From: a virus | Taxonomy: Duplodnaviria > Heunggongvirae > Uroviricota > Caudoviricetes | Length of the DNA: 4,669 bases | Strand: one strand, 5' to 3' | IMG/VR virus record: IMGVR_UViG_2565956719_000007 | Shown: piece after piece, positions 94 through 4,669 of the stretch | Layout of the letters: each line of letters begins with the position of its first letter | Position numbering within the stretch: the stretch's first letter is position 1 | The notes under the pieces: model-generated | Database searches by the model: none | Seen by the model: only the letters and a program-made list of their open reading frames with translations | Told to the model about the DNA's origin: nothing | Made by a program: the position numbers and the translations under genes

Positions 94-602
94 CTGTTAA
101 CACTGCCACTGTTGGGCAACTTCAGAACCACTGTCTCACCGCATTATCTCAAGGCGCAACTGAATTAAATATCCATATATCAAGTCAGGGAGGGGAAACT
201 GCTGCTGGCTTTACTGCGTATAACTTTCTTAAGTCACTCCCTGTTACCGTTAGAACTCACAACATAAGCAATGTTGAATCCATAGCTAATATCGTTTTCC
301 TGGCTGGCTCAGAACGTTTCGCAAACCCATTATCAAGATTCCTGTTACATCCTCTATTATGGTGCTTTGCCTCCCCAGCCGCCGACCATGCCAGATTGAG
401 AGAGTACGGGAAATGCCTCGATAACGATCTTGATCGCTTCGTTGAGACGTTCAATATCGACATCGGAACCCATATTAGGTGGGCATCCCTGATAGCAGAC
501 TCGACCATTTTGGATGCTAACAAGGCTCTTGAGCATGGCATAATTAATTCCATAAAAACTGCAAGGCTGGCATCCAATCAGGCAAACTGGTGGGTTGTTT
601 GA
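94..602 (+). pseudogene. ClpP-family (peptidase S14-like) serine protease homolog, 5'-truncated at the IS junction
   Basis: This frame is open from 39 to the TGA at 600-602 but has no ATG/GTG/TTG before 396, and everything left of 94 is IS sequence. By eye it aligns with E. coli ClpP: ISSQGGETAAG to INSPGGVITAG, VESIANIVFLAGSERFANPLSRFLLHP to [46 protein letters not shown] to FLSAPEAVEYGLVDSI. Candidate catalytic Ser (in VESIA) and His (in LLHP) are retained. About 20-45 N-terminal residues appear to be missing. Confidence 0.6.
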
Positions 603-627
603 TGGGTAAATCATGATTACTCCTTAT

Positions 628-652
628 AAAAAACCCACCTGACGGTGGGTTT
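628..652. terminator. Bidirectional rho-independent terminator between convergent genes
   Basis: AAAAAA-CCCACC-TGAC-GGTGGG-TTT: a 6-bp GC-rich stem with a 4-nt loop, an A-run on one side and a T-run on the other. It sits between the + strand stop at 600-602 and the minus-strand stop at 651-653. Confidence 0.6.
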
Positions 653-1100
653 AGTCAAACATAGTGTTTCTAAAGTCTCTCGCATACCCTGCTAACACTC
701 TCATTCTATTATGATTGTTAGCAGACATGTGAGCTACAGGATGAAAAAGAGCAATCAATGAATACCTGTTCTCATCAAAAAGATTTTGTGCATAAACGAG
801 AGCGGTATTGGATGTTTTATGCCACTGCAACTTTTGCGGTGTGCTGATATCTGTGCCATTTTTTATTGGCTCAAATTTATTTTCACCAATTGCTAAATGA
901 AGGTGCATAAGGCCTGCATCTTCAATATCAGGAGGTCGATGATAAGAGGTGTCTCTGCCAAAATAGCTGGGCAACGTTCCCGTAGACTTGTAGATGATAA
1001 AATCATCTACAAGTGTTTGTTTTAAATCAGGAAACTCAACAAAAACCGGGGAGAAAAAATAGTCAAAACTATCCTGATTATATTCCACGGTTACTTGCAT
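651..1100 (-). CDS. YafO-family-like toxin (putative ribosome-dependent mRNA interferase), 149 aa
   Basis: ATG at 1100 is preceded by GAGGT with 5-nt spacing, and that SD overlaps the upstream gene's TGA stop. From memory of E. coli YafO the protein shares motifs: IIYKSTGTLPSYFGRDTSY with ISYKRDGVLPDTFGRD, MHLHLA with HIHLA, LQWHKTS with LRQWSKTS, and a similar length. Family assignment is unverified. Confidence 0.55.
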   Translation of the reverse strand: MQVTVEYNQDSFDYFFSPVFVEFPDLKQTLVDDFIIYKSTGTLPSYFGRDTSYHRPPDIEDAGLMHLHLAIGENKFEPIKNGTDISTPQKLQWHKTSNTALVYAQNLFDENRYSLIALFHPVAHMSANNHNRMRVLAGYARDFRNTMFD

Positions 1101-1108
1101 GTTTTACC

Positions 1109-1675
1109 TCAGTGGAAGTTACCAGAGTGAAACACACGAGTCCCGTGCTCAGCAAGCGCACGCAAACCAGCCATATCTACGGAACTATCAAAAACAACCG
1201 GAACACATGAGCGTTGTTTAATAAGACTATTCAGGTTGGTTACGGCAGATCTGGCATCAGCAACAACGATATAGATATCTCTTGCGATCTCTTTAAAATC
1301 AGCAGAAGCTTCTTTGAATACCGATTTCATTGCCCCTTCAAGTCCTCTCAATTGATGCTCTATCAATCGAGACTTTTCTGGTTCAATGATAGACAACACA
1401 TTGTCTACATTCTCATCGGTAGCGTTTGCAAGAACACGATAAGCGTATTTCAGCATTCGAGACAATTCTTTAATCGAAGACACCGCCTCATGAAGCTCAT
1501 CATTAGCCCGTTCACTGCTGAATGAGGATTGATGGTAAGCGTGCTGAACGTTATCAGTAACAACCACCTCACAACTGAACGCAGAAGCTTGCTGTAATAG
1601 CAAACCTATTGCGACTCCAGCTTTGGCAGCGTTCAAGCTAAACATTTCATCAATCCCATTAGTCTCATTGCTCAT
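1109..1675 (-). CDS. Hypothetical 188-aa protein, first gene of the operon; candidate antitoxin or partner of the YafO-like protein, no recognisable domain
   Basis: ATG at 1675 is preceded by AAGGAGGT with 5-nt spacing, so I prefer it to the TTG at 1705 used by the ORF track. Its stop at 1109-1111 lies 8 nt from the next start. The protein is acidic and probably helical, with no HTH or nucleotide-binding motif evident by eye. Confidence 0.7.
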   Translation of the reverse strand: MSNETNGIDEMFSLNAAKAGVAIGLLLQQASAFSCEVVVTDNVQHAYHQSSFSSERANDELHEAVSSIKELSRMLKYAYRVLANATDENVDNVLSIIEPEKSRLIEHQLRGLEGAMKSVFKEASADFKEIARDIYIVVADARSAVTNLNSLIKQRSCVPVVFDSSVDMAGLRALAEHGTRVFHSGNFH

Positions 1676-1850
1676 ACAAACCTCCTTCTTATCGGAGATT
1701 ATCAATAGCTATGCATCCATTGAATACACGCTATGCGCAATAAGTTTACGTCACGTGATATCATTATGCAACCACCGTTCTATCACCGACTAACTTTACT
1801 CCCACTCCTATACATCATCTGGTATCCTGCGCAAAACTAAGGAGGTTGGT
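1676..1850. promoter_or_regulatory. Divergent intergenic control region between the minus-strand operon and the + strand membrane-protein gene
   Basis: A 175-bp AT-rich gap between divergent starts. On the minus strand a candidate sigma70 promoter is TTGCAT (1771-1766), a 17-nt spacer, then TAAACT (1748-1743). The spacer holds two overlapping 8-bp palindromes, TCACGTGA (1751-1758) and TGATATCA (1756-1763). On the + strand a possible extended -10 TGgTATCCT lies at 1820-1828, before the SD at 1839-1845. Promoter calls are weak matches. Confidence 0.4.
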
Positions 1851-2201
1851 GTGAATGCTCAGTCTGTCATCATGGTTTTCCTTGGGCTGATTGTCGCAAA
1901 ACTATATCCAGACTGGTGGAAAGGGGCATTAGCTACTGTCGCCATCTATTTGCTTTTATCCATCGTTAAGCGATCACTCGCTGAGACCGTAAATCAAGCA
2001 AAACGTTTCTCATTTAAGAGTTTAATAAACTATGTTACTGGGCTTATTTTTTGCCTTTCAATTCTGATCGCTTCGGCTTTTTTGCCCGTATCAATAGCTA
2101 ATTTTTTTGGCGCACCATATGAGGTAGGTTATCTATTCTCTGTTTCCTGTCTTGCCATTGCTCTTCTTTACCTGTGGACGAGATCAAAGAATAAAAATTA
2201 G
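1851..2201 (+). CDS. Small integral membrane protein (116 aa, about 4 predicted TM helices); possible superinfection-exclusion or immunity-type protein
   Basis: GTG start at 1851 with AAGGAGG 5 nt upstream. Four hydrophobic stretches are visible (VIMVFLGLIVAKLY, ALATVAIYLLLSIV, GLIFCLSILIASAFLPVSIANFF, YLFSVSCLAIALLYLW) and the C-terminus is basic (RSKNKN). Function is inferred from context only. Confidence 0.7.
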   Translation: MNAQSVIMVFLGLIVAKLYPDWWKGALATVAIYLLLSIVKRSLAETVNQAKRFSFKSLINYVTGLIFCLSILIASAFLPVSIANFFGAPYEVGYLFSVSCLAIALLYLWTRSKNKN

Positions 2202-2213
2202 CCATCCGTGGCT
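2191..2213 (-). terminator. Candidate rho-independent terminator for the minus-strand transcript, overlapping the 3' end of the convergent membrane-protein gene
   Basis: On the minus strand AGCCA-CGGA-TGGCT (5-bp stem) is followed by AATTTTTAT, 6 nt after the TAA stop of the 670-aa gene. The stem is short. Confidence 0.3.
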
Positions 2214-2218
2214 GCCAG

Positions 2219-4231
2219 TTATTGAGCTTCTTTTTGTGATGCCTGTGCGACTCTGGTGAGCGATTGTGTGACCGTACTGATCGCTCTGTCATATGCTGTG
2301 CTACCTTTTGGCGTATTTGCCAGACGTAACAAGGCATTTCGTATAACAGGGCTTTCGTATGCCTTCGCAGCTCCTCCTACGACACCAGCAGCAGGAACAA
2401 CAAACGCAGCCGTTTTTAGCATCCCCGCTAATACTGCTGCGTTTATGATGCCACCACCAACTAACAATCCATAAAGCTGCTGACCATTTAAGTTTTGAAC
2501 GTTCGCTTTTGCCGCGTGTCTTGTATCGTTGAGGTATTTAATAACGCCGTCCAGTTCCTTTCCATGTACGCCTTTAAAGAAAGTTGCTGATTGCTTCCTG
2601 TTCCGGTGTAACGCATTAATAAACTTTTCAACACTAATATTTCCAGACGGATCAGTCGCCTTATCTACAGCATTCTGAACTATGGCTGCTCGTGCGTTTT
2701 GCCTACCATTGTCATCCAGAAGCCTGTAAAGCTGAGAACGTTCTGATGGGTTTTGGCTAAAAACGAGTTTTGTTACATCCTCAGGTGTAGCCTTGCCGCT
2801 GGCTATTGCCTTTTGAACGCGCGTTCTTCCCATCATGTCATTGAATCTAGCCCATGAGCGATCAACCCTAGACATATTGGCAGCTTCTTCTGAGCCTAGT
2901 TTTTGGGATACTGCTTTTTTCATATCCGCTGTATATGCCTTGTAGACAATATCGCTGGCTTTCTGGAGCGTGTCTTTATCAACAGTCTCGTTTGAATTCA
3001 TGAACCGCTTTCGAAGGTCAGTTCTGTTTTCTCTCGCCAGACGCAGGTCATTGGGTCCGCTGGTGATATCGTCTTTAAATTGCTGCAAGACTTTTACCGC
3101 GGCTCTATCCTGAGATTTGCCCGGGCGGCTTAACACGGCAATCTGATTGTCGATAGCTTTTACCGTGTTTGAGAGATCGACAGGGGTATCCCCCATAGCG
3201 TCAATTATGCGGTTATATCGCTTTCCTGCTGCCTCAATGAATTTTTGTTGCCCTTTAGTCGCAGATTCATAAAGCTGTTTATCAGAAATGCCACCCAGAC
3301 CATCGCTAAATGTTCTGACTAAATTTTCTCGTGCTTGTTGTTGATTCAGCCGATTCTTACCGGTTCCAAAAAAAGGAACTCTTTCGCCTAATGTCTGAGC
3401 CTGACTCTGCATAAAGGTTTTATCTTTCAGCGTGTCACTGGTCATTAACGGCAGGTTTCTTTCCGACGCAAAATCGACAGCAGCCTTTGCTTCCGGTGAC
3501 ATCTCACCGCGAACAGCCCTGGAAACCGCACTAACTGTATTTTCCAGCCCCTTGCCAACACCACCAATGCCAGCAGAAATTACCGTTTGTGCAGGATCAA
3601 TATCTTCTCCGCCAGCAAGGCTGGTGCCACCCTGTAGTGCTAAATCTGTAGCAGCTGATTTCCCTATGGCACCAAGCACCGTTCCAGCCCTGCCCGCTGG
3701 TGTGAACGCTAACGCATTAGCAAGAAACGAAGTCAGGTCTTGCGGTGATAAACCTGGCTTGTTCAGGGCATAATCACCGGATGGCAGGGAAACGATAGTG
3801 TTACCCTTCTCATCCTGCCTTAATTTCGCCCCCATACTCTGAAGAATCTTTTCCTGAGACGCGTCGGAGCCGAAAAGTTGAGACCATCCAGCCTTCAGGG
3901 CATCCATGCTTAGTGAGTTCAACTCAGGGGCAGCCCCAACATTTTGCAGTCTCTCCATTTCTGGTGTCATTCGGCTTTCACCGGTAACGGCATCGCGCAT
4001 TGCAGCACCTAAAACAGCCCCTTGCTCAGCAGAGCGATCTAGTCCTTCCTTCTGCTGAGTGGCAAGCTGTGCATATCCTGATGCAAGTGAGTTGTCTGCT
4101 GGCGATTGCTGAACACCTTGTTGTGTTGGCGCTGACTGACCAGCAAAATACTCATCAATGGCGGACCCAATATCTTCCGTGCTCGTACCATCAGGAAAGG
4201 TAAATGTCTTACCATTTGCAGTTACTTTCAT
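2219..4231 (-). CDS. Large 670-aa protein, probably a phage DNA-ejection (injection) protein of P22-like podoviruses, gp16/gp20-like
   Basis: A 2 kb ORF with ATGATGA at its start overlapping the upstream gene's TGA. The second ATG (4231) is chosen because GGTGG lies 4 nt upstream of it. The protein is Ala/Gly/Gln/Ser-rich with a about 40-residue hydrophobic segment near the C-terminus (LYGLLVGGGIINAAVLAGMLKTAAFVVPAAGVVGGAAKAY). The N-terminus MKVTANGKTF..PDG.S.EDIG.AIDEYF resembles my recollection of P22-like ejection proteins. It is certainly a real gene; the product call is tentative. Confidence 0.5.
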   Translation of the reverse strand: MKVTANGKTFTFPDGTSTEDIGSAIDEYFAGQSAPTQQGVQQSPADNSLASGYAQLATQQKEGLDRSAEQGAVLGAAMRDAVTGESRMTPEMERLQNVGAAPELNSLSMDALKAGWSQLFGSDASQEKILQSMGAKLRQDEKGNTIVSLPSGDYALNKPGLSPQDLTSFLANALAFTPAGRAGTVLGAIGKSAATDLALQGGTSLAGGEDIDPAQTVISAGIGGVGKGLENTVSAVSRAVRGEMSPEAKAAVDFASERNLPLMTSDTLKDKTFMQSQAQTLGERVPFFGTGKNRLNQQQARENLVRTFSDGLGGISDKQLYESATKGQQKFIEAAGKRYNRIIDAMGDTPVDLSNTVKAIDNQIAVLSRPGKSQDRAAVKVLQQFKDDITSGPNDLRLARENRTDLRKRFMNSNETVDKDTLQKASDIVYKAYTADMKKAVSQKLGSEEAANMSRVDRSWARFNDMMGRTRVQKAIASGKATPEDVTKLVFSQNPSERSQLYRLLDDNGRQNARAAIVQNAVDKATDPSGNISVEKFINALHRNRKQSATFFKGVHGKELDGVIKYLNDTRHAAKANVQNLNGQQLYGLLVGGGIINAAVLAGMLKTAAFVVPAAGVVGGAAKAYESPVIRNALLRLANTPKGSTAYDRAISTVTQSLTRVAQASQKEAQ

Positions 4232-4575
4232 CATTCCACCGTAAATTGAATGCCTGATTTTGACGTGTAGCTACCTCCTGCTGATTGCTGAGTAGCTGGC
4301 TGTTGCCTTGATGATTTCTTCCCGCCATTACCAACATTAACGTTATATTGCTGGTTGTAATTGTCGGTATATTGCTGAATGTCGCGCATTGATTGTTGCA
4401 GCGCTTCAGGACTTGAGAAATCAGGCTTTGGCATACCCTGAAAATACCTATTGGCCTCTGCTTCGGTGTTGATGCCAGATGCCCCCATATCTCGGGCTGC
4501 TGCAATCCCCTGATTTTGCATTTTGCCCATGATTCGCTGTGCAGCGTTGTATAGCCTCCTCTCCTCAACACCAGA
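4231..4575 (-). pseudogene. Upstream ejection-protein-like gene, 5'-truncated by the IS insertion (C-terminal 114 codons remain); translationally coupled to the 670-aa gene
   Basis: The frame is open from the IS junction to the TGA at 4233-4231 and ends ...[19 protein letters not shown]. The part of the track ORF beyond 4575 is IS sequence with only a TTG at the window edge. Internal ATGs at 4528 and 4519 lack a convincing SD. Confidence 0.5.
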
Positions 4576-4600
4576 TGAACCGCCCCGGGAATCCTGGAGA
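4576..4600. repeat. Terminal inverted repeat (left end) of the right IS copy
   Basis: TGAACCGCCCCGGGAATCCTGGAGA is the inverted partner of 69-93 and begins with the TG dinucleotide typical of IS3-family ends. Confidence 0.85.
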
Positions 4601-4629
4601 CTAAACTTCCTGAGAAAGAGGTAAACAGG

Positions 4630-4669
4630 ATGACTAAAAATACTCGTTTTTCCCCCGAAGTCCGTCAAC
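4630..4669 (+). CDS. IS3-family transposase OrfA, N-terminal fragment (continues beyond the window)
   Basis: ATG at 4630 with a canonical SD; translation is [13 protein letters not shown]. It was missed by the ORF track because it runs off the window edge. Confidence 0.8.

Follow-up and report, generated by a model that had tools for sequence, protein, structure and literature searches.

The window analysed here is a stretch of 4,669 nucleotides from IMG/VR virus record IMGVR_UViG_2565956719_000007 (Caudoviricetes). Positions 94–4577 are 100% identical to a P22-like prophage of ST95 ExPEC/APEC Escherichia coli (for example S88, APEC O1). In S88 and APEC O1 the P22-like prophage is intact and sits at a tRNA-Arg gene beside intS. 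The gene order of the S88 prophage runs from integrase through acyltransferase, tailspike, ant, arc, an Arc-family gene at the mnt position and a ClpP-like gene to a YafO toxin gene with a 188-aa partner on the opposite strand. These are followed by the gene for a 116-aa membrane protein, by genes for gp16-, gp20- and gp7-family ejection proteins on the opposite strand, and by the remaining virion genes.

Both ends of the window consist of the ends of IS3-family (IS629-like) elements, at positions 1–93 and 4576–4669 and in the same orientation. Homology to the S88 prophage stops at position 4577, and the IS inverted repeat TGAACCGCCCC begins at 4576. The ClpP-like gene has lost its first ~9 codons to the IS ends, and the gp20 gene the greater part of its length, so the prophage copy in the window is a defective, IS-bracketed remnant. 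What is left of the gp20-family ejection protein gene is its 3′ part (4231–4575, minus strand; phrog_917, E = 4.5e-35). The ClpP-like serine protease gene occupies positions 94–602 on the plus strand (PF00574, E = 4e-11). In the intact prophage it lies after the mnt-position Arc-family gene and on the same strand, an unusual passenger of an immunity region, and phages EC.P3, E212 and phiv205-1 carry it with 99% identity. An Rfam search of the window gave no match.

The 116-aa open reading frame extends from a GTG start at position 1851 to a TAG stop ending at 2201 on the plus strand. A Shine-Dalgarno sequence, AAGGAGG, is present at 1839–1845, 5 nt 5′ of the GTG. The gene had originally been predicted from the sequence of the window as having a strong ribosome binding site and as converging, across a 17-bp gap, on a 670-aa ejection-like gene, and both features are borne out. 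The convergent gene (2219–4234, minus strand) has 671 codons, or 670 aa from the RefSeq start. It matches phrog_770, 'DNA transfer protein', with E = 1e-172, and is annotated in RefSeq as 'P22-gp16 family phage DNA ejection protein'. Positions 2202–2218 separate the two genes.

RefSeq records the 116-aa gene of ST95 strains as 'hypothetical', with an ATG start at 1872 and a length of 109 aa, and the variants found in genomic islands are annotated as proteins of 129–130 aa from an upstream ATG (e.g. L006 8001–8040). The start (V/M)N(A/G)Q is kept at the equivalent codon in all relatives, and two relatives contain an in-frame stop four codons upstream of it. Because of this conservation and these stops, GTG 1851 is preferred over ATG 1872. 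Judged by the alignment, the correct start is the GTG or ATG codon that opens MN(A/G)Q, so that the RefSeq protein is too short and the 129–130-aa calls are too long.

The differing start in RefSeq, the 'hypothetical' label and the lack of a family match in any library might be taken as signs of a chance open reading frame. A comparison with the homologue from Yersinia enterocolitica (72% identical protein) gave a dN of 0.18, a dS of 1.24 and a dN/dS of 0.14, and relatives at 35–40% identity retain the same length and hydropathy pattern. Together with the conserved start codon and ribosome binding site, these values refute the chance reading, to which we assign practically no probability, and by these sequence measures the 116-aa open reading frame is a genuine gene under purifying selection.

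Upstream of the gene, on the minus strand, lie a YafO-family toxin gene (651–1100; PF13957, E = 3e-22) and the gene of its 188-aa upstream partner (1109–1675; phrog_8416), which is atypical and not a YafN-type antitoxin. The divergent arrangement of this operon and the 116-aa gene is present as proposed, with an intergenic region at 1676–1850, and it had led to the suggestion that the two may be co-regulated. The YafO pair occurs in only some prophages of this type. Relatives without the toxin-antitoxin cassette include L023, L024, L004 and the islands, and DNA homology between contexts begins only ~40 nt 5′ of the start codon. This boundary identifies the YafO operon, at the level of sequence comparison, as an independent insertion, and co-regulation as an intrinsic property of the 116-aa gene is therefore not supported.

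Kyte-Doolittle analysis of the 116-aa protein reveals four hydrophobic segments, at residues ~4–19, 25–39, 58–86 and 93–110. An AlphaFold2 model built from 12 sequences, with a pLDDT of only 66, contains helices at 3–18, 22–49, 55–85 and 90–115. Both analyses thus agree with the original prediction of a four-helix membrane protein. The basic loop at residues 40–57 contains five Lys/Arg residues, and the C-terminal tail reads RSKNKN. Counting Lys and Arg together, eight are found on this loop and the tail as against two on the other side, which favours a predicted topology with the N and C termini inside. An invariant motif, AKLYPDWW (residues 16–23, A16 to W23), stands out in the alignment of the 12 family members. 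With the termini inside, this motif would fall in the turn that joins helices 1 and 2, on the predicted periplasmic side.

No known family could be assigned to the protein. Scans against Pfam, NCBIfam, PADLOC and PHROG returned nothing significant, none of the anti-phage defence models of PADLOC-DB was matched, and a profile search of the PDB gave no matches. Foldseek comparison of the AlphaFold2 model with BFVD and the PDB yielded no match with E < 0.6, a weak negative given the pLDDT of 66. The GtrA-like four-helix family PF04138 did not appear among Pfam matches at E ≤ 10. Nor did any colicin-immunity family, and no colicin-immunity sequence was matched in the PDB. T4 Imm and HK97 gp15, which stop DNA entry by related phages, are small phage-encoded proteins of the inner membrane, as the 116-aa protein is predicted to be; the likeness is one of functional class only, since no PHROG or Pfam similarity was found and both come from other genomic contexts and phage types. 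The similarity to Phage_holin_3_6 (PF07332) is sub-threshold, with 13.7 bits against a gathering cut-off of 28.4 and E = 0.065.

The closest known counterpart by position is sieA, whose products fall into types A, B and C. SieA blocks DNA injection by P22-like phages, and mutations that escape it map to the C-terminal regions of gp16 (G532W, P546S) and gp20 (Leavitt et al. 2024, PMC10883804). The gene is present in 22 of 66 P22-like phages, about a third, and the recognition by SieA of ejection proteins that diverge widely still awaits an explanation (PMC10883804). In P22, sieA lies between genes 16 and 9, has its own annotated promoter and converges on gene 16 across a 22-bp gap. The type-B sieA of prophage HS1 (E. 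coli HS) has the same position and orientation, with a gap of 21 bp. The 116-aa gene likewise occupies the interval between genes 16 and 9 of a P22-like prophage and converges on gene 16.

The two proteins are not related in sequence. BLASTP of the 116-aa protein against P22 SieA gave E = 0.29, and hhalign of the family profile against SieA gave probabilities of 0.4% for type A and 0.09% for type B (HS1). Neither the 116-aa protein nor its distant relatives matched phrog_7745 at E ≤ 10, whereas P22 SieA matches it at 9e-109. Precomputed Pfam annotation assigned no family to any homologue of the 116-aa protein and PF26849 to 14 of the 16 SieA homologues returned; the local Pfam library lacks PF26849 and PF26808, so a null result there says nothing about SieA. 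The conserved cytoplasmic C-terminal motif of SieA, FxRYPxEAxxFNK (PMC10883804), is found in P22 SieA (FGRYPGEANGFNK) and HS1 SieA (FNRYPGEARKFNK), but none of the 12 family members in the alignment has it. The profiles, the BLASTP result and the missing motif rule out a SieA homologue of type A or B (PF26849, phrog_7745), and by these sequence criteria the 116-aa protein is not homologous to either type. The architectures differ as well, as the 116-aa protein is predicted to have 2 + 2 helices separated by an 18-aa basic loop, whereas SieA has 164–212 aa and a soluble insert of ~55 aa after its first helix. The suggestion that the gene follows the SieA paradigm thus stands for position, orientation and leader (32 of 33 nt, see below) and fails for homology, and the search for similarity to known exclusion and immunity proteins came out negative throughout (SieA types A and B, colicin immunity, PADLOC, PHROG). 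The family is uncharacterized and unannotated, and not homologous to any known exclusion protein.

The region directly in front of the gene also resembles that of sieA. Positions 1821–1853 on the plus strand read GGTATCCTGCGCAAAACTAAGGAGGTTGGTGTG and comprise a sieA-type leader, the Shine-Dalgarno sequence and the GTG start. A single mismatch separates this segment from the 33 nt ending in the GTG of P22 sieA (P22, L003 4832–4864), and in P22 the annotated sieA promoter lies directly upstream of the 33-nt leader. When a 40-nt leader query was used, 73 phage records matched; all are P22-like, and the match lies at sieA, hkcB or another gene in that position. Candidate –10 elements can be read from the plus-strand sequence at 1809–1828, namely TATACA (1809–1814), CATCAT (1813–1818) and an extended –10-like TGgTATCCT (1820–1828), and the block is conserved from ~1811 onward across loci with different upstream cargo. 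A scan for two-hexamer sigma-70 consensus promoters found none on the plus strand upstream of 1851.

The same leader precedes other genes. In HK620 (L039 3001–3361), the leader and GTG stand before hkcB, which abuts gene 16 and whose 109-aa product has a single membrane helix at its N terminus. An unannotated 62-aa open reading frame with two membrane helices (MKKKFVNVAKCAIFIFF...) follows the leader in phage phiv205-1, E. coli E66 and ETEC4079. It is located at 3536–3724 in L038 (phiv205-1), 4038–4226 in L037 and ~4032–4220 in L036, is convergent on gp16-family genes and is found with at least two gp16 types. HkcB (one helix) and the 62-aa protein (two helices) are unrelated in sequence to the four-helix 116-aa protein, although all three are small membrane proteins encoded behind the same leader and convergent on gene 16. 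The leader of the type-B sieA in prophage HS1 is related to that in the window, and at the corresponding position phage N7 has a different 106-aa single-helix open reading frame with its own leader. Every other occupant examined is a small membrane protein. As the same leader precedes the unrelated SieA, HkcB, 62-aa and 116-aa proteins, the segment from the sieA leader to the end of gene 16 is, on this sequence comparison, a cassette slot whose small membrane proteins are unrelated to one another. As a kind, small membrane proteins encoded at the sieA position were already known. The start site of P22 SieA has been described as uncertain (Leavitt et al. 2024, PMC10883804), and the conservation of the GTG across cassettes favours the 164-aa start.

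On the other side of the gene, the gap to gene 16 contains a short conserved hairpin, AGCCA-TCCG-TGGCT (2200–2213), which is terminator-like on the minus strand, where it is followed by AATTTTTATT. In relatives the gap measures 16–23 bp and mostly contains a small hairpin, GCCA-TCCN-TGGC. This stem is retained, with a variable loop, in most of the distant relatives examined, and L010 retains only CCATCCATGG.

The most hydrophobic stretch of the gp16 protein in the window lies at residues ~578–615 (LYGLLVGGGIINAAVLAGMLKTAAFVVPAAGVVGGAA), where the KD19 value reaches up to 1.86. It is bracketed by the residues that align with the P22 escape positions G532 and P546; P22 gp16 is ~30% identical to the window gp16 over the C-terminal 300 aa. 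C-terminal hydrophobicity was 1.3–1.9 for the gp16 types linked to the 116-aa gene versus 0.7–1.1 for P22 and HS1, a trend that is not clean, since N7 and HK620 overlap the linked range and one sequence is mis-framed. Because of this overlap, a hydrophobic C terminus was rejected as a marker of the linked gp16 types. Among the phage records, N7 has the closest gp16 C-terminal region (63%), yet it lacks the 116-aa gene.

The family is small. An exhaustive phmmer search of 1.84 billion representative proteins gave seven matches, and word-indexed searches returned 19 clusters for the single sequence, rising to 24 when a profile served as the query. Wherever a source is named, it belongs to the Enterobacterales (Escherichia, Salmonella, Yersinia or Edwardsiella). 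Searches of 50,697 phage records by tblastn and distant blastn found no match at the protein or DNA level, nor did one turn up when a single genome of each species was scanned. The gene is present, always on the chromosome, in 227 of 5,426 complete E. coli genomes, and at 17 loci in IMG/VR.

At every locus with testable downstream sequence (>20 loci), the gene converges on a gp16 gene of the same type. The linked gp16 proteins are 62–100% identical to that of the window, and where the membrane protein falls to 35–39% identity, the paired gp16 is still 62–71% identical. The linkage is seen in P22-like prophages as well as in primase/integrase islands. Upstream, the content varies between loci: the gene may be preceded by the YafO cassette, directly by an Arc-family gene, by other open reading frames, or by AlpA/PerC/Abi_2. 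None of the loci bearing the 116-aa gene contains a type-A sieA.

Two kinds of element carry the gene in E. coli. The form with at least 99% identity, as in the P22-like prophage, is found in ~100 E. coli genomes, and a variant with 90–95% DNA identity in ~170 complete E. coli genomes. The variant loci examined lie in islands that carry genes for an integrase, a TOPRIM/DUF927 primase, AlpA and PerC, along with ash-family and Icd-like genes. Of the virion module they contain just the ejection-protein cluster, represented by gp20 and gp16 and, in some islands, by gp7 and gp14 as well. Such islands were seen in L006–L009, L025–L028, L030–L031 and L040 (E. coli 83972, 10870–28374), with a variable cargo spot (Abi_2 in some) beside the homologue of the 116-aa protein. 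L029, which carries the variant form, has a fuller P22-like late gene set, so not every variant copy need be island-borne. From their gene content the islands look like satellites carrying their own ejection proteins. A literature search found no description of these ejection-protein-only islands.

Taken as an analogy with sieA, the best explanation of the 116-aa protein is that of a SieA-like superinfection-exclusion protein, a proposal to which we give about an even chance. The chances are similarly balanced that the gene has taken the place of sieA, without being homologous to it, in the P22-like cassette slot. Like P22 SieA, the protein is small, prophage-borne and predicted to be a polytopic membrane protein, and its gene occupies the same slot 3′ of and convergent on gene 16 with the same leader, ribosome binding site and GTG. 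It would be expressed from the prophage, as sieA is, and would reside in the inner membrane. There it would impede the gp20/gp16 DNA-delivery conduit of superinfecting P22-like phages, with superinfection exclusion as the outcome. It may act through the invariant AKLYPDWW turn, predicted to face the periplasm, and its membrane helices. The exclusion reading is argued for by the match to P22 sieA in slot, orientation and leader, a leader found only in P22-like phages. It is also argued for by the linkage to gp16 at >20 loci, including islands with only ejection-protein-cluster virion genes, by the lack of a co-occurring type-A sieA, and by the small membrane proteins that make up the other slot occupants examined. 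It is weakened by the lack of homology to SieA types A and B, the missing motif and the different architecture. Since HkcB and the 62-aa protein are without known function, sieA is the one occupant from which the step from slot to exclusion can be drawn. The 116-aa gene is also tied to one gp16 type, whereas sieA is found with several.

The slot could instead serve as an expression site for a prophage 'moron', a membrane protein with another role in lysogenic conversion, for instance protection from unrelated phages or from colicins, or a function in the envelope or in host fitness. Such a role would suit a slot in which, SieA aside, four or more membrane proteins unrelated to one another and without known function are found, in a gene 16-to-tailspike region that is a general cargo region and here also contains the YafO toxin-antitoxin pair and the ClpP-like gene. 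The constant pairing with one gp16 type, down to 35–39% identity and in ejection-protein-only islands, argues against a function unrelated to ejection proteins, and no known defence family is matched in PADLOC. We regard a moron role as possible, though somewhat unlikely. That same pairing, constant even in islands with little else of the virion module, would be expected of an accessory or self-immunity factor for the element's own gp16/gp20, which might shield the producing membrane from new membrane-active gp16 or be needed for ejection-protein function. The convergent layout of a small membrane protein and a membrane inserter also recalls the gene pairs of pore-forming colicins and their immunity proteins. 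The orientation opposite to the late operon and the lysogen-type sieA leader speak against a factor of this kind; P22 needs none, and N7, with the closest gp16 C terminus among phage records, lacks the gene. It has, in our estimate, a slim chance of being correct. That the protein acts as a toxic or holin-like membrane effector, such as an abortive-infection killer, is very improbable. The sub-threshold resemblance to Phage_holin_3_6 and the holins among the non-significant Foldseek matches point in that direction, but all these scores are insignificant and P22-like prophages have a separate lysis cassette. Moreover, the strong ribosome binding site lies in the leader of a lysogen-expressed protein, and no partner antitoxin travels with the gene.

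The immunity proteins of pore-forming colicins (colicins A and E1) are small polytopic inner-membrane proteins. Their genes lie directly downstream of, and convergent on, the gene for a protein that inserts into the inner membrane, and the pair is tightly co-inherited. The 116-aa gene and gp16 share this convergent layout and tight co-inheritance; unlike in the colicins, there is no similarity to immunity families and the partner is a virion ejection protein. By analogy, the 116-aa protein and the linked gp16 type could form a cognate pair that moves as an ejection-plus-exclusion module, an unlikely extension of the exclusion proposal. In such a pair the membrane protein would recognize the unusually hydrophobic C-terminal segment of gp16 within the bilayer, a segment that aligns with the region of the P22 SieA-escape mutations. 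The module would move between P22-like prophages and the integrase/primase islands, which would then be satellites.

Specialists are likely to gain most from two of these results, the cassette slot with its shared leader and the islands whose virion genes are confined to the ejection proteins. The slot occupants form a set of natural, directly testable alternatives to SieA, and if they do exclude phages, their comparison would reveal which part of the gp16/gp20 conduit is vulnerable. With the gene present in 227 of 5,426 E. coli genomes, including ST95 ExPEC/APEC strains, the protein could alter how susceptible these strains are to infection by P22-like phages and to transduction.

When the family alignment was used for a profile search, only one further relative emerged, the mosaic protein P0040 (131 aa, L041 1695–2090). 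It has only the N-terminal helix and the AKLYPDWW turn in common with the family, and its C-terminal half is different. This suggests, from the sequences compared, that the N-terminal hairpin can be exchanged as a functional module. The P0040 gene is convergent, at a distance of 16 bp, on a large open reading frame with no family on record, and Arc and Rha genes lie alongside.
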